45,377 nucleotides of DNA from Nemertoderma westbladi (Eukaryota; Animalia; Xenacoelomorpha): positions 1 through 45,377 of the forward strand of contig JAUCBJ010001510.1 in the NCBI GenBank assembly GCA_032718475.1, read 5' to 3'. A model generated the notes under the pieces. That model ran no database searches. It saw only the letters and a list, made by a program, of their open reading frames with translations, and had not been told where the DNA came from. Positions 12,478-42,479 of the stretch are shown here, in pieces. A program made the position numbers and the translations under genes. Each line of letters starts with the position of its first letter. The first letter of the stretch is position 1.

Positions 12478-12929
12478 TTGATTATAATTTAATATATTAA
12501 ATATTATATATTGTATAAATGGTAAAACTCAATTAAATAAATACAACCGCAGGGTGCGTGGTCCGGTTAATTAATAATAATGATAAATGGTGTGTAAATA
12601 AATAATAAAGATAAAAATATCCCGCTGTTATTAAAAAGTGATATTCATCTCGCATTTTCGATTTGGGATTACTCTTAATCTTGCTATTATTGTAGCTAAG
12701 CAATAGTTCCTCCAGATGTGAAGCTTGTCTAAGTATCACAATTAAATATTTACTTTAGGTAGTGTTCTAGGGGTCAATATTCAATATAATTCTAGATGTG
12801 TATTATTTGTGCAATATACTGTGAAAATTTATATTAGCACTAGTAGTATATATTAGTTAGTAGTTATATTATTTATATTATAGTGGTCCTATATTAAGGT
12901 TTTATCGATTTTTGATTGCGATTGTCTAG

Positions 12930-13177
12930 GTGTGAGACAGCTGGATATTGTGAACAGTCCTGTTGGTAGTGACTCATACATTGGTGGATGTACACCTAAC
13001 TTGGCTGTAAATGGCATAAAGAAAGAGGAGTGGGGAGCAGCACCTAATTGCGGATTCCATTCCGATATCACTTCTCCCAACTGGTGGTGGGTGGATCTCT
13101 ATAGTGAGAAAGCTATTGATCACGTTATCATTTACAACAGAAACGATAGATGGTATTATAGGTTAAATGGTGCCAAG
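12930..13177 (+). CDS. Host gene exon: F-type lectin (fucolectin) domain, N-terminal part
   Basis: ctag acceptor, gtaaaa donor, phase 1-0. Contains LAVNG, WWWVDL and an exact H-x26-R-x-D-x4-R fucose-binding motif (HSD..YNRNDRWYYR). Confidence 0.9.
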
Positions 13178-13698
13178 GTAAAAGCTATGTGAATAATAAT
13201 GAATAATATGCCTTTTGTAATTTTAGGCTGATAATGTAATTTTAACAGGTGATGTTGTTGTTCATTTAATTCATATGAGGGGGTGCGTGTCAAAACTTTT
13301 CTCATCCTGTTTGCAAATATAGTGGTCTACTATTGCTTCATATCTTACTTACATTGCACTGCATGCATCCATGCATTTCACTACTTTATCATCCTTTGTC
13401 GCGTAGGCTTACCTGTACTGATTCTGGCAGTATGATGGATGGTAATTAATGTCTATATTAAATTTTCGTTTTGAATATGCATGGTTTGGAATGTTAACTG
13501 AAGCTGTTTTTCAATCTGCGGTATTATATCCTCTATGTAATTTTATATTGGTAGCAACATTTATACACTGTTCTATTCAAAAAAATAAAGAATGCCCCTT
13601 TGTAACATCAGTAAGAATAGGCAGTGTCATTTAAAACTATATTTATGTACTATTTTTCGAGTTTTTTCAAATTATCCAATATAATATTGGATTAAGAT

Positions 13699-20469: not shown

Positions 20470-20754
20470 TAAAGGGAAATGGCACTAAATCTTATTGAAT
20501 GAGGCAATATTTTAGGCTCGTTGTCATTAAGCCAAGGAATGCCTCTTCACCACCAAGGGTGATCTTCCACAGTAAACCCTTCCACTCAGTTTCCTTGGTT
20601 CCCATTTATCGACCAGTTAAGTATGGAAGCCAGGGTTGGGCTAGGCTGCAGCATTTAAAGCACTCAGCCTAAACAGCACTGCCCCATCTAGGGATCGAAC
20701 CAGGGTTTCCTAATTGGAAGCTCAGTAATGTCACCAACTAGACAAAGCGGCGGC
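20470..20754 (-). mobile_element. tRNA-derived SINE
   Basis: Minus strand: A-box-like TGTCTAGTTGG, B box GGTTCGATCCC, then a CTTCCAT..GGTCGATAAATG SINE-type central segment. Confidence 0.65.
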
Positions 20755-21917: not shown

Positions 21918-23877
21918 AGTATGGATTGAGAAATTGGATATATTTGGACGTCAATGGATGGATAGGTTTGGTTTGAGAAACTAATATCACGTAGGCCTAC
22001 CTAATCATATCTTTGCGATAATTATTACTAGATCCACTGGCCCCCAGCCACCTTCAACAAACCATCATTGCTGGGGGGCACTCAGCTGAGGGGGAGGAGC
22101 GCATTAAAAACTCTAAGTATCGCGCGACCTAATGGACCGGGGCCATTTCTTTCACCCCGTGGCCTTTGAGGCCCCGGTCCAGAGACATCCACCTTCCTCC
22201 GGGAGATCGGGGCTCGTCTCCACGGTGCAACCCACGAACCGCGGTCACACCAGTTTCTGCTCCAGCGCCTGGAGATGGCAATTTGGGTTGGTCATTTGGG
22301 TCAGCCTCAGTCATGGGGACAGCAACCAGGCCGACCATTGGTCTATTCGGGCACTGAAGAGCGGAAACCAATCAAAACTGTCGAAATGGTTGCCAATGGA
22401 GTCACCAACGGGATGACGGCCGAAGATATTCAATATTCAATACTCTATCTTATGCAATCTCAAATATTCAATTCGGTACTGTACCTTCAATTCAATATTC
22501 AATCTTAGTATTATTTCTGTGCTTCGTTATTTAATAATGTGATTAGATAAACAAATAAATTAATGAAATGTTAATTATTACAAAAAACAACCCAAAATTA
22601 TATTAACATTTATATAGTTGTGAATTAAATATTTCGAAATCAACAGTCATTCAATGAACTTATACAGCAGGGTCATATCGCGTATCCCTTGGTTTAATCA
22701 CTATTATTTATTCAAGTATAACTGAATCCTGGCCCGCCGCCTTCACCCTCCACTGATAATTTAAAATCGTAACTCATTCAATCTTTGACTAAATTATACC
22801 AAACTTGGTAAACATGTAATCTTTGTCTATCGGCTAAAATAAACACAACTTGCTAAAGTTTCCCCTATAATGTTTTTTCCTATAGAACAGGATGCAGTTT
22901 TATTTAATTTAGTAGTAAACAAGCTGTTATTTGCATCGATTTTCACCTGGAGAGGGAAGAATATTGACTGCCCCCCCCCCCCCCCCCCCCCCTACCTGCA
23001 GTTAAGTGAAATTATTTCGACACCATTTAATTTTATTATCACGGTCGCGCATCAAGTAGTCTGTCAAAAGATACAATTCAATATAAACATAACAAAATGA
23101 ATTATAATAATTCTAAAAATATAAGGCAGATTATCCTAAAGTTAGCTCTTTAGTCTTTAGCAATCTTATACGTTGACAAGACTTATAAAATAATTGATGT
23201 TGAATAATTATTATTAAGATTAAAATATATTATTAGGAATTCGAAGAAAGCAAATTGTATTGAGTTAGTATTGGCAAGTTAATCTCACAAACCAGTCTAG
23301 TCTAACTTTACAGTAGCCTTGTTCGCATTGTTCCAAGTTTAGGCCAATAGATTCCACCGTCTTCGTTCCAGGTTTAATACTGTAATAGACTCCGTTATCC
23401 GTCTCGATCGCTTCGCTATGCACCATCTTACTGGGTTTTCTCTGTTTTGTAGATTACTTCGACATCGTCTGATCGCTTTGGTTGCGTGTTTAATACTGTA
23501 ATAGACTCCGTCGACAGCCTATCGTTCTGGATACATTGAATAGACTCCATTGTCCATCGCGATCGTTTCATTGTTTACGTTTAATTGACTCCATCGCCTC
23601 CTCGGATTAGGAATCCGGCCGGGTTTCGTAGATTCCGCCATCGTTCAGCAGTTCAGTGTTTTTAATCAAAGCCAGAATTCCGGTACCGGCACCACTGCAC
23701 CACGATCAACGAGTTCGGAAGTAACAGACTCCGTCAACAATACTCGGGGTTTAAAAAATACAACTATCAGGCAACTTGTAACTGGGCGATCATCTATCTG
23801 ATAGTTGAAAAAGACTGTCTGACAGTTGGTATCAGACTATCTGATAGTTAGCGCCCCATGGGTAAATCCTTACCCCA

Positions 23878-25083
23878 TTGGCTGTTACCTCTCTGACTGA
23901 CAGCGCAACAGCCCCTATAGCCGCCTGGAGACATTTTCGATTAATTATGCTCACGCCACGCTCGACGTCGGTTAGAAACATTAAATATATGGATTTAACA
24001 CGGAGGGCCTCCTACGACGTCAACAAATGCTTAAAATTAAACCTCTTAAGAACGCGCACACTATACCAAATCGAATACTACAAGTCTATTAAAGAATCCA
24101 ACTTTCCTCCACAACATATCGTCCCCCGAGTTAGCCAAATTCTAAAATTTTACCCTAAACTATATAACGGACTTTTAAAGCGTATATTTACCACTGAAAT
24201 CCAGAATAGATACACCAGACTACGTAATCTCCAACGCTTCTACAACGAGTCTTACGCTAGACTTCTAAATTACGCAAACACCCGATCCGACACTCGGCCC
24301 CTTGATTACTTGGATTTTTGGATCCCAGTCAACATGGACAGAGAACGAACTGTTACACGCGCCCGGCTCGAATACAGGCATAGTTTCGATTCCGGTTTCG
24401 AGACTATGAATGATTATCTCGACGGTCAACAACCTAACAGGGAACCCGCCAAATTCCGCACCAAACATCTCGACCCATCCCACACCCAATCCACGAACCC
24501 TTTCCCGCAGGCTCAAGCTCCCGTTACCAATCTATCTAACGTTACCCTCAACCAAGAACAACTGGACCTTCTAGGCTTGGGATTCAATTTCATACCATAC
24601 CGAGGCTTAACCGACTCGGACTGTTTCGAAGCCAGTGTCGACATTTCCATGGCGGCCTCCAAACTCCGCTACAGGAATCGCCATATTAACCACATCGAAC
24701 AGAACCGCACCCACAATCCCAGCACCCCACAGAACTCTCGCTGCCCCCACCCCTCCCCAGCCACCAGCGAAACCCAAACCCTCCAGACCAGGCCAGCCAC
24801 CCAGGCGAGTACTTTTCAAAGATCCAACAGACCCCCATAACCAACCTGTCCCTATACCAGACTTTCCACATACATCACCTCTACATCCCTTACCCTCTCG
24901 TAGCGAGCGAAGCACCCCATGCGTTCCTCACTCACCCACCCATCAACACGCAACCCCTATCACTGGTACCCCCTCTACCCGCACCCACTCCAAAACCAAA
25001 GCTATGGCATCCACACACCCCCCGAGCCTAGCTAGCATACCCGAATTGGCACCTGATTCTACCCCCGATACCCACAACCCACA
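23878..25083 (+). pseudogene. Probable Penelope-like element ORF N-terminal region, 3'-truncated (no RT)
   Basis: VTNLSNVTLNQEQLDLLGLGFNFIP matches the pre-RT motif of PLE proteins. A/C-rich sense strand and an overlapping Pro-rich frame at 24635-25243. Confidence 0.55.
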
Positions 25084-25405
25084 CAGACTTCTGTCTCCTC
25101 TGATCAGTGATCATGTATGTTCTGCACATGTCCTTCATAGACTATCACATAACAAAAAAAGTCGCATCACAACAGTCGGTCCAATAGAGGGATCATCATT
25201 CCTACCATTGTGTCTGTCATCTACCATTCCCACTGTCAGTTGAAAGTTGTTGGAAGTATTGGAAATAAATAATATAATACCTGAATATTTATTTTTGATT
25301 TTAAACAATATTAATATCATTTTTGAGACCATAATTGGTAATGATTTCCTAGAAATTGGCCTTAGTAAAACAGCCTTATTGACATTTGTAATTGCATGTA
25401 ATGTA

Positions 25406-27306
25406 CAGGGTGTCCCATAAAATTTGTTACTACTTTGAATTTATATAACTCCCACGTATGTTGGATAAAATATAAGTTTTTTATATCAAATTAAAGCCAA
25501 TATTCTAACTTAGATTTTGGTCCGTGTTTGGAGTCACAACGTTGTTATGGAAACAAAATACAGCCAATTGAACTCAAAAGCCAGATTTTATACATTCGTA
25601 AGTGAAGCTTCGAGGCCGTTTAAATAGGTAATGCGCTATTTGGACGATACATGGTCATGAACATTGCTTGTTTGTTATGAAAGGTTAAAATTCGAGGAAC
25701 GTTGGTCATAAAGTGTATTTATTTTTGGTTATTTATTTTATTACAATTTATTTTGTGCCAATATTCAACATACTAACTAATCTGACAAACAAATAAAGTA
25801 TACAATCAATGCAATACTGTATGTATGCATACACACACTAGCATTAAATAATAAATAATGCCTGTGACGATATAATAAACCTGGAATAATTGTAATGTAC
25901 TTGTAATGTAATTGAATCTAAGAGTTAGATTGATTAGACACTAGAAGTTTAATGCTATTATTGTACCGGTATCTATTTGTAAATCTCTACGTGGCCACCT
26001 CCTATTTCCTGCACTTTTTCTAGTCTACTCATCATTTCTGCAAAGGATCTCTGAAGATGGGCTTTCGGTATTCCGTTGAAGGCTTCAGTAATAGCAGGAC
26101 GAAGTTGGGCCAAGGATTCAATCGGTTGGCTATAAACTAAGTTCTTAATGTGGCCCCATAAATAGAAATCGCAAGGTGTCAGGTCCGGGGAGCGTGGTGG
26201 CCACAGCACTGGTCCATCTCTGCCAATCCAATGTCCGTTAAAATGACAGTCCAAATAATTCCTAACGATAAGCCCCCAGTGTGGCGGTGCACCATCTTGC
26301 TGGAACACAATATCGCTATGATGGATTCCTAACCGAGGAACAAAAAATGAAGATATCAAATCTAAATAACTGGCACTTGTGACAGTTGGTGTATCAAAAA
26401 AGTATGGACCAATTAATCGTGTGCGAGACATAGCTGCCCATACAGTGACCTTTGGTGAGTCGCGAGATTTTTCAGCGATTGAGTGTGGGTTTTCCTTTCC
26501 CCAAATCCGAGAATTCCATCTATTTACTTGTCCATTGACATGAAAGGTAGACTCATCACTAAAGAATACCTTGGATAAGTCCTTAGATTCTAGAAAGTTC
26601 AATATCTGGGCCGCATTATTGACACGTCTGGTGTAGTCGTTTTGTTGAATTGCATGTAGGAGCTGAATTTTGTAAGATTTAAATTTGAGTTTCTTAATAA
26701 CTCTTTGAATACTGCTACGACTGTAGCTTAATGATAGTGATGCCCGCCTCAGTGATGTCTTGGGATTCTGGATAAAATGGGCCTCAATGATTTCTCTTGA
26801 AACACGAATGCGTCTTCCTGACCCCTTTTTTCTGGTGAAACCGAATTCGGATGAAAGTTTTTTCACGAATCTTAAAATTTCAGCGTTTTTAGGAAGACGC
26901 TGATTTGGAAATTTGTGTCCAAATGCACTAGCTGTCAGTTTGGGCGACTTAGTTTCAAAATACGTTTTTACAATAAAAACTTTCTCTTCACCAGAGAACA
27001 TGGTTCCAACTTAAAACACAAGAGTGAACCAAAATGGTAGCTAGTCTTATTTCCATAGCAACACTAACTTTCTCATAAAATAAATACCCGCAAAAGACTA
27101 GAACATGCACCTACGAATGTATAAAATCTGGCTTTTGAATTCAATTGGCTGTATTTTGTTTCCATGACAACGTTGTGATTCCAAACACAGACCAAAATCT
27201 AAGTTAGAATATTGGCTTTAAATTGATATAAAAAACTTATATTTTATCCAACATACGTGGGAGTTATATAAATTCAAAGTAGTAACAAATTTTATGGGAC
27301 ACCCTG
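25406..27306 (-). mobile_element. Complete Tc1/mariner DD41D (rosa/Visitor-type) transposon, 1901 bp
   Basis: TA TSD at 25404-25405 and 27307-27308. ~200-bp TIRs starting CAGGGTGTCCCATAAAATTTG with few mismatches. Confidence 0.95.
25973..27001 (-). CDS. Intact DD41D transposase, 342 aa
   Basis: FSDES, QQDGAPPH and WPPRSPDLTPCDFYLWG, with 41 residues between the second and third Asp. N-terminal HTH region. Confidence 0.95.
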   Translation of the reverse strand: MFSGEEKVFIVKTYFETKSPKLTASAFGHKFPNQRLPKNAEILRFVKKLSSEFGFTRKKGSGRRIRVSREIIEAHFIQNPKTSLRRASLSLSYSRSSIQRVIKKLKFKSYKIQLLHAIQQNDYTRRVNNAAQILNFLESKDLSKVFFSDESTFHVNGQVNRWNSRIWGKENPHSIAEKSRDSPKVTVWAAMSRTRLIGPYFFDTPTVTSASYLDLISSFFVPRLGIHHSDIVFQQDGAPPHWGLIVRNYLDCHFNGHWIGRDGPVLWPPRSPDLTPCDFYLWGHIKNLVYSQPIESLAQLRPAITEAFNGIPKAHLQRSFAEMMSRLEKVQEIGGGHVEIYK

Positions 27307-27497
27307 TATATCCTCTGTATAAGTTGTTGATTACAATTTGTCTCTTGACAACCGATATGTATTACATCTATATGCGGCTAGTCATAACTCTGATCTCGCA
27401 AGATTCCAAACTTGACCCCAATAATAACCAACTACATAGTAATTAGAGACAGGCGACAACTGGCTACAATATATATCATAAACATTAACTATTTTAG

Positions 27498-27632
27498 ATT
27501 TTGATGAATGCGCTGATAATGGTGCAGGAAGCAGCAATGACTGCGATCCAAATGCCAAATGTACAAATACATTGGGTGGATTCACATGCAGTTGCAATAC
27601 TGGGTATTCTGGTGATGGAGTTGCTTGTACCG
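27498..27632 (+). CDS. cbEGF exon, array copy 1 (DFDECADNGAGSSNDCDPNAKCTNTLGGFTCSCNTGYSGDGVACT)
   Basis: ttttag / gttagt, phase 1-1, open. Confidence 0.9.
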
Positions 27633-27753
27633 GTTAGTCATTACTCCGATCTCTCAAGATTCTAAACGTGACCCCAATAATAACCAACTTCATAGTAATT
27701 AGAGACAGGCGACTACTGGCTACAATATATATCATAAACATTAACTATTTTAG

Positions 27754-27888
27754 ATTTTGATGAATGCGCTGATAATGGTGCAGGAAGAAGCAATGACTGC
27801 GATCCAAATGCCAAATGTACAAATACATTGGGTGGATTCACATGCAGTTGCAATACTGGGTATTCTGGTGATGGAGTTACATGTACCG
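27754..27888 (+). CDS. cbEGF exon, array copy 2
   Basis: ttttag / gttagt, 135 nt, open. Confidence 0.9.
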
Positions 27889-28009
27889 GTTAGTCATATC
27901 TCTGATCTCTCAAGATTCAAAACTTAATCCTAAGAATAACCAACTACATAGTAATTAGAGACAGGCGACTACTGGCTATAATATATATCATAAACATGAA
28001 CTATTTTAG

Positions 28010-28144
28010 ATATTGATGAATGCGCTGATAATGGTGCAGGAAGCAGCAATGACTGCAACCCAAATGCCAAATGTACAAATACATTGGGTGGATTCACATG
28101 CAGTTGCAATACTGGGTATTCTGGTGATGGAGTTGCTTGTACCG
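28010..28144 (+). CDS. cbEGF exon, array copy 3
   Basis: ttttag / gttagt, 135 nt, open. Confidence 0.9.
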
Positions 28145-28265
28145 GTTAGTCATTACTCCGATCTCTCAAGATTCTAATCTTGACCCCAATAATAACCAAC
28201 TTCATAGTAATTAGAGACAGGCGACAACTGGCTACAATATATATCATAAACATTAACTATTTTAG

Positions 28266-28400
28266 ATTTTGATGAATGTGCTGATAATGGTGTAGGAAGA
28301 AACAATGACTGCGATCCAAATGCCAAATGTACAAATACATTGGGTGGATTCACATGCAGTTGCAATACTGGGTATTCTGGTGATGGAGTTACATGTACCG
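28266..28400 (+). CDS. cbEGF exon, array copy 4
   Basis: ttttag / gttagt, 135 nt, open (GVGRN variant). Confidence 0.9.
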
Positions 28401-28522
28401 GTTAGTCATATCTCTGATCTCTCAAGATTCAAAACTTAATCTGTAGAATAACCAACTACATAGTAATTAGAGACAGGCGACTACTGGCTACAATATATTT
28501 TCATAAACATTAACTATTTTAG

Positions 28523-28657
28523 ATTTTGATGAATGCGCTGATAATGGTGCAGGAAGAAGCAATGACTGCGATCCAAATGCCAAATGTACAAATACATTGG
28601 GTGGATTCACATGCAGTTGCAATACTGGGTATTCTGGTGATGGAGTTACATGTACCG
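28523..28657 (+). CDS. cbEGF exon, array copy 5
   Basis: ttttag / gttagt, 135 nt, open. Confidence 0.9.
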
Positions 28658-28778
28658 GTTAGTCATATCTCTGATCTCTCATGATTCAAAACTTAATCCT
28701 AAGAATAACCAACTACATAGTAATTAGAGACAGGCAACTACTGGCTATAATATATATCATAAACATTAACTATTTTAG

Positions 28779-28913
28779 ATATTGATGAATGCGCTGATAA
28801 TGGTGCAGGAAGAAGCAATGACTGCGACCCAAATGCCAAATGTACAAATACATTGGGTGGATTCACATGCAGTTGCAATACTGGGTATTCTGGTGATGGA
28901 GCTACATGTGCGG
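28779..28913 (+). CDS. cbEGF exon, array copy 6
   Basis: ttttag / gttggt, 135 nt, open, ends GATCA (aa). Confidence 0.88.
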
Positions 28914-30385
28914 GTTGGTATAACTAAACTTAACCCATTGTTTGTTTCTGCGATAGTAAATATATTCCAGTATTCAACAAAGTCAATATAGTTCAGATTC
29001 CGACTTTTATATTAAAATTGAAGCAATAGGCCTAGGCTCTGCTATTGCAGTATTGCATTACATATTACTTTGCAAAGATCTGTATATTATAATACAGATA
29101 CTATCTCAATCCCCTCCTACTCCCTCCACCAATTTGCATATTCCAAACAGTTAATGTCAGTGTACTTGAAAGCGAGATGGAGTCTTTCGACTGCAGTTAC
29201 TTCTTCATATCACTGTCTCCCACCCTTCACTATCCCTAAATCATCTACACGTTGGTGTAACAAGGCGCTTTTATTGCTTGTCTTGGAGGGGCTCGGTTCC
29301 CTTGTCTGGATCTATATCACCAGTTGTATGTTGGTTATCATAAATTGGACCAACGAAAACGCTGATTGCGCCGAAATATAGCCCCATTGTCCATCAATAC
29401 GTGATAGCTGTGACCCCTTATATCGCCATGTAGCACGGTAACCTCTATAACCCATAAACCCGATTTTGGGTTCTGTAATCTCATCCTGGGTCCTGTACTG
29501 TAGATAATAATGAAAGTTGGATTGAGCCACGGTTGTACGATTTGGCCACTTCCTGCCTATGGACCCTTGTCCTCTCATTAGCTGACATGAGCTCCGAACT
29601 TGATACCTGGTTGTAATTCAAATATGGCAACTTTGTTCCCTTTTGCATGGCTGAATCATCTTTGAGCTGGGCTCAACCCATCCGATCTCAGAGTATTTCA
29701 GTATTCCAAAATTACATCACTAAATTCCTTGCTGCTAACATCGTTCGAAACTTTCAGCAGCAGATTCTTTATGCGGAAACCGCGGATTCTCCATAAGCAT
29801 TTGCCTGGTGGTGGTATGGTGATGATGGATCCGATTTAATGTAATTCGATTTACAATACTCATTAAATCCATTAGTCACAAACTGAGGAGTTCCATTGTT
29901 GTCAATCTCGGAGGCAATCCAAACTACTTGATCCATGCATTAAGACACTTGATCATAGCTGTTGTATCAGGCCAACCTCTACTGCAACCATAGACTTCTA
30001 GCCAACCTGAATACTTGTCGGTAATTTCCAAGTATTTTTTTCCTGAAACTTAAAAAAAAATCAGCTGCTATGGCTTCCTATGGTTTCATTTGTCTTGAAT
30101 TATCGGTTCTCTGCCCTGGGATGGCTTGAATACTTCACACGGATCACAACTTTGTACAACGTTACTTACATCATTTGTTATGCCGGGCCATATACTGGGA
30201 CACATTGTCACATTCGATCATGGCCTTCGGAATTACAACTAACGATCCATATAAGATTATATCATCTTTTGCCATAAGACCTTGTCTGAGACACCAATAT
30301 TGTTTCAGATCGTCACTCAATATTTCTTTATGTTCTGGGAATTCATTATTAACTTCATTCATCCAACACCAAATCGGGTGATGAT

Positions 30386-33874: not shown

Positions 33875-34386
33875 ACTACTACTACTAGGATCGGCACGCT
33901 GCATTGCAGCTGCATTATTAAGAATGCTGTGCCAGCTTGTCGACAAAATTGCGCCGCCACAACTCCCTATTATCACCCATGATATTTACTAGATCATCCG
34001 CGTCTTCAAGGCCAGTGTCCTTTAAGATGCGTCTCAAGAAAGTCATGGGCTGTCCACCATGCTTATTCACTCCATGAGGCTGCCAAAGTACAAGATTATG
34101 CACTGGCTGGTCCTCACGGTGAAAGCAATGTCCTGCAAAGCGGAGGCGATTTTGTTCTAGTGTCAAGCTTGGGGGAACCAATGAGACACCTCCAATGTTA
34201 TATAGTGTCTGGTTGGAGATGTGTGCATTATACTTGACACAATGAACTCGAAGTTGCATTCTTGTGAATGTGCCATCCAGAGATTTGGTGTCCTCAGCAG
34301 TTAGAGCCCAGCATGGACACCCATAGAGGAGTACTGGAACTACTGCTGCTCTAAATAATCGGACCTTAAGTTTCCGATTAATTCTC
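33875..34386 (-). mobile_element. RTE LINE family B, 3' end
   Basis: ORF 33918-34259 RLRFAGHCFHREDQPVHNLVLWQP. (TAG)n tail at 33875-33889. Confidence 0.88.
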
Positions 34387-40248: not shown

Positions 40249-41340
40249 TTAATAACCTTCAAATTCTTCATACAAAAAATCAATGGTTGGCCGTAGTTCC
40301 TTGTCCAAACCTAACATTGTGCAATATTCATTGCAATTATGCTCCTGAAAAAACTTTCCAATCCCAATTAAGCTGCAATTTCCAGCACAGAACAACATAT
40401 CTCCGGTTTCGTTCTGCGGCATATCAGAGGTGGCTCTCTCGGGATCATATAACAAATACTCAGCACCTTGAATGTCAAGGAGCATAAGCTTTCTCTGGTT
40501 GTAAACATAGCTGAAATGAGCAAGACATTCACTCTTCTTTGTGATTTCCAGGTGATTATTAGAGGCACCTGGAGGTGTCACTACAGAGCCATCATTATTA
40601 ACATATTTAGCAAAGGTCCCTGGAACAAACTCCTCGAGGGTACACACTGATCCATCTTCATCGCCTTTAGCAAACCAAACATTATTATACTTAAGAGTAT
40701 CACTGAAATCGCTATGGTCAGGAATTTTCTTGCACATTGATATTGCGAGATTGCGTGCTACACTGTGGGCTTGTACCTGCTTCCTGGCATGTTGCTCTAT
40801 TCCAGTCCCAAGCTAAGTGATGAAAAGATTTTCCAATTCTTTATGATGCTTCTTTACAACAAATGCCTTGTTAGAATCGCTATTATATGCCATATAAGCA
40901 CTCCGAAATCCTCCTTCTGCAAATTGAGTTGTTGCTATCTTGCATGATTCTGGTTTATCTGGTAACCAGTAACTATTTGCCACATCAAACTCTTCACGAT
41001 ATAGTTTCACAATTTCATATTTATTTCTAGCAACAAGTTTTCCTGCCTTCATTAAGGCACGAAATATCAACAGATTTAGGGTACACTGAGACAATTGGTG
41101 TCGCATGATCAGCCAGATTCGAAAGCGTTGGTTGCTCAGTCCCAATTGTAGGTTGCTTCGATTATACAGTGGAATTGGGTATTTCGTTTGAAACGGTGAG
41201 TTGCACAGTCGAGTTGTTTGTGTTGTTGTCCGGAACTGGAGCAACCCCTATAGAAGCAACACCTATAGAAGGGCATAGAGATTTAACTGGACCTACAAAA
41301 CGCACAAATAATATTTTTTTCACCGCAATCTGATCGATCA
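40249..41340 (-). pseudogene. Intronless alpha-kinase (eEF2K/TRPM6-7 kinase-like) pseudogene
   Basis: FAEGGFRSAY, FVVKK, LEEFVPGTFAKYVNNDG, LAHFSY, LLDIQG..LYDPE, GNC..IGKFFQEHNCNEYC. Split over several frames by at least 3 disruptions. Confidence 0.88.
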
Positions 41341-41549
41341 CCAAACAAATACAGATAAGTTATTTTCGGTAAAATAAACTTATCATTCGAGGTTAAGACC
41401 CCTAGATCCCTATCTATAATAAATGTATAATAACAAACACCTCGAAAAATACAGCTTGCCAACACATTGTTACTATCAATAATAAAACATCAGGGGCAAA
41501 TAAAATGGCAGCTGGCTTTGAAATTAATACTCCATATCTCAAGAACCTG

Positions 41550-41602
41550 TGGCCTAGTGGTTGTAGTCTCGGCTTCTACCTCGAGGTCCCAGGTTCGAAT
41601 CC
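41550..41602 (+). promoter_or_regulatory. tRNA-type internal Pol III promoter (A box + B box)
   Basis: TGGCCTAGTGG at 41550-41560 and GGTTCGAATCC at 41592-41602, at tRNA-like spacing. Confidence 0.85.
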
Positions 41603-41605
41603 GAC

Positions 41606-41648
41606 ACCACGCTGATGAGACCCAGTAAGGTCGAAACGCGTACGTGGT
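41606..41648 (+). ncRNA. Minimal type I hammerhead ribozyme
   Basis: Stem I ACCACG/CGTGGT, core CTGATGA, stem II GACC/GGTC (loop CAGTAA), GAAA, palindromic stem III ACGCGT, GUA triplet with predicted cleavage after 41642. Confidence 0.9.
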
Positions 41649-41802
41649 TTGGAGAGATATGAGATATTAATTTCAAGAAAAATTACGCGATTCCTGAATT
41701 TGTACACTACCCGGTTTAAAAGTACGCATGTGATCGGATTAGTCCTACAATTGCGCCAATAAAAGATAAGTTATTTTCGGTAAAATAAACTTATCATTCG
41801 AG

Positions 41803-42190
41803 ATCCAGAGATTTGGTGTCCTCAGCAGTTAGAGCCCAGCATGGACTCCCGTAGAGGAGTACTGGAACTACTGCTGCTCTAAATAATCGGACCTTAAGTT
41901 TCCGATTAATTCTCGGTGACTTCCAAATCCTGGAAAGCCTATTCAAGGCTGCCCATGCCTTTCCCTTACGTATTCGAAGGTCCTCACCTGACTTCCGGAT
42001 CCATGATCCCAGGTAACAGAAGTCGTCCACATGCTCAAGCATACCATCCTTTGAGCTTATGCTCATCCGATCAGAGACTTGCTGAGGACTTTCAAAGTTA
42101 ACTGTCAGAATTTTGGTCTTTCTGGAGTTAATAAAAAGACCAACACTAGAAGCAGCATGTTCTAATAGGAGTAGGTGACTGCACAACTCA
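41803..42190 (-). mobile_element. RTE LINE family B, upstream continuation of 33875-34386
   Basis: ORF 41794-42186 GLFINSRKTK..VDDFCYLGSWI..LFRAAVVPVLLYG. Its first 112 bp repeat 34275-34386. Confidence 0.88.
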
Positions 42191-42350
42191 TTTGTATGGC
42201 TGGCTGCCTGTTAATACAAGTGACAGTACCCAGAGTACAGTTTTAGTAGGTAAGCCTATAAAAAGTGCGGTCAAATGAACATTTGAATGGACACCTCATT
42301 ATATTCCAATTATCATAATGATTATATATAATTCAACTGATGTATTTTAG

Positions 42351-42479
42351 ATGTAGATGAATGCTATGTCAGAACCGACAACTGTCTCATTGATAAAGCT
42401 ATCTGTGTAAACATTCCTGGCTCGTTTCTGTGTGAATGTAACCCTGGTTATGCTGGCAATGGAGTGACATTATGTGAAA
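42351..42479 (+). CDS. Host gene exon: cbEGF ([43 protein letters not shown])
   Basis: ttttag acceptor, gtaagt donor, 129 nt, phase 1-1. Confidence 0.93.

Follow-up and report, generated by a model that had tools for sequence, protein, structure and literature searches.

A hammerhead-bearing 411-bp repeat of Nemertoderma westbladi as a probable Pol III-driven retrozyme

Introduction

A hammerhead ribozyme that stands directly behind tRNA-type promoter boxes raises the question of what kind of genetic unit the two motifs belong to. Such a combination occurs in a Nemertoderma westbladi contig that we analysed over a stretch of 45,377 nucleotides (the window). A sequence-only reading had taken it for a self-contained 159-bp cassette, boxed by inverted repeats in a layout that it did not recognise, which would release a ~100-nt tRNA-like RNA and could cut the pre-mRNA of a lectin-EGF gene. 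The analyses below point to a larger unit and to another role for the inverted repeats: the locus would hold a near-intact copy of a young, high-copy, Pol III-driven retrozyme that was likely spread by the enzyme of a Penelope-like retrotransposon, a reading to which we assign a probability of about 0.78.

Materials and methods

Copies were traced in contigs of public sequencing runs, twelve of which were listed, seven containing part of the stretch and none being recorded as RNA. Runs X1, X2, X4, X5, X7 and X9 were compared, and contigs of X1, X2, X4 and X5 were mapped over 41150–41899 of the window. Statements attributed to a published source refer to the part of its text that was available.

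Results

Promoter boxes of tRNA type precede a type I hammerhead

On re-reading, every coordinate that had been given for the A box (41550–41560), the B box (41592–41602, at a spacing of 31 nt), the hammerhead and the inverted repeats proved correct, the two arms matching at 20 of 23 positions (Table 1). Helix I (41606–41611/41643–41648, 6 bp) and helix II (41619–41622/41629–41632, 4 bp, loop of 6 nt) surround the core at 41612–41618 with GAAA at 41633–41636, and these helix lengths, combined with the core CUGANGA/GAAA/UH, are those of canonical metazoan type I hammerheads. Helix I is lengthened by 41600–41604/41649–41653 beyond a 1-nt bulge. Helix III (41636–41641) is a 6-nt palindrome made of one pair and a palindromic tetraloop, which agrees with the short palindromic helix III class named before and, with 1–2 bp under a palindromic loop, is of the dimer type.

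To gauge chance matches, the whole window was dinucleotide-shuffled 300 times and scanned on both strands. A strict hammerhead descriptor (helix I at least 6, helix II at least 4) gave no match and a loose type I descriptor two; the strict pair of A and B boxes likewise gave none and the loose A plus B pattern 75, the descriptors having been composed with the real motif in view. The head is of tRNA type, as had been read from the sequence. The Infernal check that had been suggested returned a divided answer: in a search of 601 nt, Rfam Hammerhead_HH9 matched with E=2.1e-4, but its 26.6 bits lie below the cut-off of 52, and over the whole window no Rfam match reached the gathering score.

ARAGORN reported 0 tRNAs and Rfam no RF00005 match, and the anticodon-like triplet (41576/41577) is not the same in the window copy, the family majority and a relative in X7. 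A tRNA gene is ruled out on these grounds, and since the triplet varies among copies we regard the head as a promoter. It is predicted to fold as a rod (41543–41596), not a cloverleaf, and the A-box spacing would place the Pol III start near 41543. At 20700 on the minus strand, a second B-box-like motif is seen in a decayed tRNA-like head with no adjoining hammerhead.

Table 1. Features of the repeat copy and its surroundings (positions in the window).
Feature	Coordinates	Strand	Remarks
Repeat unit	41353..41763	+	411 bp, 39% GC, non-coding; depth step at 41353 in X1, X2, X4 and X5
39-bp repeat, first copy	41353..41391	+	Hairpin 41354–41384; sole T4 run of the unit at 41363–41366
Internal inverted repeat, left arm	41518..41540	+	Lies ahead of the inferred Pol III start and inside the element
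tRNA-derived head	41543..41602	+	A box, anticodon-like arm 41568–41585, B box
Type I hammerhead	41606..41648	+	Canonical metazoan; predicted cut 41642/41643
Internal inverted repeat, right arm	41654..41676	+	Stacks on extended helix I
39-bp repeat, second copy	41764..41802	+	Either the beginning of another unit or a tail of PLE type
Right flank	41803..42200	-	Abundant LINE-like reverse-transcriptase repeat fragment, cut off at the junction; right end approximate
Downstream host exon	42351..42479	+	Calcium-binding EGF-like module, AG/GT ends

The element extends beyond the inverted repeats

Self-comparison revealed an exact 39-bp direct repeat (41353–41391 = 41764–41802), which we read as marking the true ends of the element, the inverted repeats sitting 165 bp and 87 bp inward from the ends of the unit and the window carrying 1.1 units. 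No stop-to-stop frame of at least 80 aa is present within the unit. Summed contig depth stands at 10–40 in the left flank versus 3.7–7.9 × 10^5 (X1) and 1.7–5.8 × 10^5 (X2) over 41375–41774, more than 10^4 times the flank depth, summed depth being distinct from copy number and possibly inflated up to ~31-fold by contig overlap. Taken broadly, it climbs from ~36 in the flank to 2–8 × 10^5, and it shows no step at the arms of the inverted repeat.

This equal depth inside and outside the arms, across all 411 bp, largely refutes the self-contained cassette, whether conceived as a MITE-like element or as a small-RNA gene yielding a ~100-nt tRNA-like RNA; the 159 bp form the central part of a mobile repeat of 411 bp. 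Besides its inverted repeat (20/23) and very stable fold, the cassette has on its side contigs matching only ~41561–41680 (records 4 and 5 of X1, the 1831-nt contig of X5) and four X1 contigs with loose ends behind 41675. The partial contigs start within the head, however, and not at the left arm, the loose end of the X5 partial contig runs on in unit-like sequence, no TSD was found beside the arms, and a triplet that varies between the window, the majority and X7, in a head where ARAGORN and Rfam see no tRNA, argues against a tRNA-like product. We thus consider the cassette highly improbable. A DNA element of the MITE/TIR type was rejected as well, the arms being internal to the unit and free of a TSD.

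Folding predictions offer another role for the arms, in line with the retrozyme reading. The segment 41518–41676 folds with a z-score of -6.35, its left arm is paired with a probability of 0.99, and the arms stack on the extended helix I in folds of 41518–41676, 41353–41802, 41200–41950 and the circular unit. By these models the inverted repeat is an internal RNA structure that extends helix I; of the unfamiliar boxed layout, the arms themselves are real but the box around a cassette is not. Helices I and II pair with probabilities of 0.91 and 0.99 when the inverted repeat is included, and in modelled Pol III transcripts from 41543, which lack the left arm, the values are 0.91/0.99 for an end at 41660, 0.48/0.67 at 41700 and 0.61/0.95 at 41776. 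For the circular unit, the predicted free energy is -106 kcal/mol (z=-4.8, 60 shuffles), and the hammerhead helices are formed. Two helix III palindromes give a 6-bp duplex of -9.5 kcal/mol, and helix III as a monomer costs ~5 kcal/mol.

In X4, a single 441-nt contig (411+30) represents the unit closed on itself, which shows the head-to-tail junction to be the apparent norm of the family; the loop is not evidence of arrays or circles, because, at a word length of 31, a repeat of 39 bp is enough to close the graph. The run contigs showed no tandem array containing two hammerheads. The first possible Pol III stop past the promoter is the T4 at 41774–41777 in the second 39-bp copy, and T4 depletion on the plus strand, an expected sign of Pol III read-through, was not significant (P=0.53). 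No TSD was found at this locus, and as the right flank is moreover a cut-short LINE fragment, the insertion is not clean.

A young and homogeneous family

With contig overlap taken into account, we infer that the family numbers several hundred copies or more. Of its 411 positions, the window copy departs from the majority letter at 8, one of which lies inside 41518–41676. At a threshold of 1%, the X1 contigs vary over 41500–41709 by only three substitutions (41565, 3.7%; 41577, 99.6%, the window copy being the odd one; 41677, 2.4%) and one insertion (5.9%), none of which falls in the A box, the B box or the hammerhead. X5 holds contigs with 0 differences at depths of 1095 (41518–41576) and 1811 (41586–41655), and in X1 and X5 alike the promoter boxes and the hammerhead are retained in other copies, so the combination is not confined to the window; a lack of such copies had been named as a refutation, which the contigs do not bear out. 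Another X5 contig, of depth 401, carries several core changes (41614, 41634, 41641), from which it follows that a dead subfamily has also been amplified. The homogeneity of the family would thus reflect youth as much as selection and is no proof of selection on the ribozyme.

The left junction of the window copy recurs in an X2 contig with 0 differences, and an X1 contig runs along the flank as far as 41348 before departing from the stretch. Together these contigs agree with a presence/absence polymorphism; alternatively, the flank may be paralogous.

The sediment metagenome X7 contains a diverged relative, for which a single run supplies four unphased contigs of low depth. Over 41551–41585, 12 differences are listed, and a separate contig has one difference over 41586–41665. 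The A-box changes of this relative replace a purine by a purine (41551) and a pyrimidine by a pyrimidine (41553), and in the anticodon-like arm, for which there is no phased alignment, one pair is compensated and one broken. These unphased contigs hint faintly that the B box and ribozyme may be under tighter constraint than the remainder of the head. In X4 the unit has a depth of 13.8 and the LINE 112.6, and no flank is present; low-level DNA would look alike, and as the nature of X4 as RNA is a guess only, the run says nothing about expression. X9, from another organism, gave 0 contigs, which is no proof of absence.

Two X5 contigs match the unit in part: one of 600 nt (depth 512) shares only its first 120 bp (41353–41474), mostly with T-to-C differences, and the 1831-nt contig (depth 401) shares only the head and hammerhead part (41567–41675), with a broken core. 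Related families or partner elements are possible sources of both.

A metagenome scan for a B box with a hammerhead of the same helix III returned 0 matches, and of the 120 loci, drawn from 25 of 64 parts, that matched a looser pattern, none satisfied the type I descriptor beside a B box. Among viral contigs, phage tRNA genes have type I hammerhead motifs no more than a few bases downstream (L001:301-359, L019:301-368, L022:301-375, L025:301-349, L026:301-357), 5 of 35 matches to B box plus core satisfying the type I descriptor; in 11 of 12 loci picked by eye, the Rfam tRNA ends just before the motif, and in L022 the adjacent Hammerhead_1 match is below the cut-off (E=1.8e-4). The phage loci presumably recall tRNA-linked theta ribozymes.

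Flanking sequences and the host gene

EGF exons lie on the plus strand at about 10890, 20887, 27497–28900 and 42351–42479, the last one being presumably EGF by its cysteine pattern, and Pfam finds an F5/8-type lectin match at 12884–13189. With exons on both sides, and if these belong to a single gene as seems reasonable, the repeat copy is probably intronic and sense to its host, as had been read from the sequence. Elsewhere in this gene region, 27375–28925 consists of six 256-bp tandem units with an EGF-like exon in each, a recent host exon duplication, and 25401–27311 is a Tc1/mariner-like element whose inverted ends measure 204 bp and which has a DDE frame of 345 aa.

The copy itself sits between a minus-strand alpha-kinase ORF and the minus-strand LINE-like fragment. 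The former (40249–41247, minus strand; Pfam PF02816, E=2.4e-24) is an intronless, frameshifted ORF in the host intron, and the depth of this flank suggests low copy number, possibly hemizygous. The latter, which we take to be a LINE from its motifs, has a 98% match to 34275–34386, an ORF at 41794–42210, only a weak Pfam match (DUF6451) and a depth of 1–2.5 × 10^6 in X1.

Contact with this fragment brings up the idea that a tRNA-headed, SINE-like element was moved by a LINE and not by a PLE, the hammerhead being a passenger or a trimmer of the transcript. Two more joints, with the unit breaking off near 41423 and 41483, fall at the same place of the LINE (41803–41815), and the available Discussion of PMC7229834 leaves LINEs open as partners. 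On the other hand, the LINE fragment is on the opposite strand and cut inside its reading frame, the unit lacks a LINE-like 3' end, an A-rich or microsatellite tail and a TSD, its flat depth speaks against frequent 5' truncation, and its 39-bp terminal repeat is PLE-like. Mobilisation by a LINE is in our view unlikely, and spread by a PLE enzyme is preferred. The two further unit–LINE joints have a depth of ~43 in X1, and 18–26 contigs per run show mixed loose ends behind 41850; the repeated joints possibly mark an insertion hot spot or deletion derivatives of one event.

An intronic ribozyme in sense orientation might also have been domesticated by the host to regulate the lectin-EGF gene through pre-mRNA cutting, and the hammerhead helices are indeed predicted in the pre-mRNA context (0.91 and 0.99 over 41200–41950). 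Such a role is hard to reconcile with a copy that is ~2% away from the family majority and apparently missing from one X1 haplotype, with the ~5 kcal/mol cost of helix III as a monomer, and with the 6% cleavage in 1 h of a like-built axolotl ribozyme as monomer in the available text of PMC7229834. Moreover, 41606–41648 is the sole hammerhead in the 45-kb window, so cutting of the pre-mRNA would need a partner in trans. Domestication thus appears very unlikely. The cutting of the lectin-EGF pre-mRNA as such is possible but probably weak, as monomers with this type of helix III cleave poorly (PMC7229834; PMC4209133, both in part); with a dimer-dependent ribozyme, a lone intronic copy probably cuts its host pre-mRNA poorly.

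The family itself could supply the partner. Its abundant Pol III RNA might pair in trans, through the palindromic helix III, with sense intronic copies and activate pre-mRNA cutting, the inverted repeat serving as a folding clamp only in read-through, circular or host transcripts. Helices I and II pair at 0.91/0.99 with the inverted repeat versus 0.48–0.61/0.67–0.95 in Pol III transcripts running past the right arm. We speculate here, and give the idea only a small chance; were it true, a young polymorphic retrozyme would be a source of allele-specific gene damping.

A model for propagation

For the Pol III-driven retrozyme that we favour, we propose steps borrowed from known systems and fitted to the observed unit, tail, abundance and motifs. 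Pol III would start near 41543 and, in head-to-tail copies, continue past the single T4 into the following unit. Two hammerheads would then pair via their palindromic helix III, and cleavage at 41642/41643 would remove a ~100-nt tRNA-like 5' piece and free a 411-nt monomer, whose two ends the inverted repeat would keep together for circle ligation by a host ligase. A PLE reverse transcriptase copying the circle slightly over once would leave a unit plus 39 bp. The ~100-nt RNA that had been foreseen as the product would accordingly arise, but as a 5' by-product, the cut serving the release of unit-length RNA in the Sm-alpha/retrozyme model.

The lone copy in the window is probably a dead end, because its Pol III transcript would stop near 41777, short of one unit, and only weak cleavage is expected from its single hammerhead. 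As for an autonomous PLE partner, no second match to the end of the unit was found in the window. An ORF of 324 aa at 23866–24840 contains a stretch that we take to resemble the N-terminal motif of Penelope-like proteins; it had no match in Pfam, in a search of longer proteins or in the atlas.

Discussion

Sm-alpha and Sj-alpha of Schistosoma are SINE-like hammerhead retroposons that were reportedly described by Ferbeyre in 1998 and by Laha in 2000. The comparison with Sm-alpha that had been drawn from the sequence was apt, as a tRNA-type promoter followed by the hammerhead is common to both: here as there, a tRNA-derived Pol III promoter precedes a type I hammerhead in a high-copy unit of a few hundred bp, and the A and B boxes upstream of the ribozyme are kept across copies. 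The consulted portions of the schistosome literature give a tRNA-Gln origin, a size and a copy number for Sm-alpha (PMC2770079; PMC8490949), and in the SINE-like layout of Schistosoma, where the promoter is followed by the hammerhead, single copies cannot propagate (PMC6765202). The likeness extends to this point, since cleavage leaves the monomer with its promoter at the 3' end, so that single copies are dead ends. In contrast to the 335 bp of Sm-alpha, however, the present unit has 411 bp, its head appears Gly/Glu-like by its loop rather than Gln-TTG, and it carries a 39-bp hairpin terminal repeat in addition to the 23-bp inverted repeat extending helix I. The likeness described here is one of layout.

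Non-LTR retrozymes measure 150–450 bp with less than 50% GC, and metazoan retrozymes as a rule form self-paired circles in which the ribozyme stays free (Cervera and de la Pena 2020, PMC7229834, in part). The repeat resembles them in size, low GC, lack of coding capacity, type I hammerhead and number of copies, as well as in a predicted self-paired circle whose ribozyme is free to fold. Solo monomers are known there, as the single copy is here, and helix III, one pair plus a palindromic tetraloop, is as in the axolotl HHR_Amex1 and the newt satellite. It differs in that the copy is intronic and sense, whereas Xenopus retrozymes are excluded from introns according to the accessible text of Li, Clavereau and Pollet 2026 (10.64898/2026.07.22.740005), which also argues that animal retrozymes derive from PLEs. 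A term search of the available text of PMC7229834 and of 10.64898/2026.07.22.740005 found no tRNA-type promoter for retrozymes, and the retrozyme papers searched here do not, in those parts, address how animal retrozymes are transcribed.

With the pLTRs of PLEs and with non-autonomous PLEs such as MRC1, the element shares a type I hammerhead with a short palindromic helix III (PMC4209133; PMC8557442, as far as available). PLEs form partial tandems with a tail of 30–40 bp (PMC8557442, in part), and at the one locus analysed here the unit likewise is a partial tandem with an extension at one end, in this case of 39 bp. The differences are that the present element has no ORF and an internal tRNA-type promoter, and that its hammerhead has the canonical 6/4-bp form and not that of the PLE min-HHR; a 6/4/1–2 bp geometry is, in the available part of PMC4209133, the canonical metazoan type I, which needs a second copy.

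A literature search that took in few subscription papers and neither Repbase nor supplements found no such element outside schistosomes. The layout of promoter plus hammerhead is already known from blood flukes, and the family itself is new. Being young and homogeneous, with perfect Pol III boxes, a dimer-type hammerhead and a PLE-sized tail, it provides a clean test case that links Sm-alpha-type SINEs, retrozymes and PLE mobilisation, and it shows the design of the schistosome elements in another animal genome.
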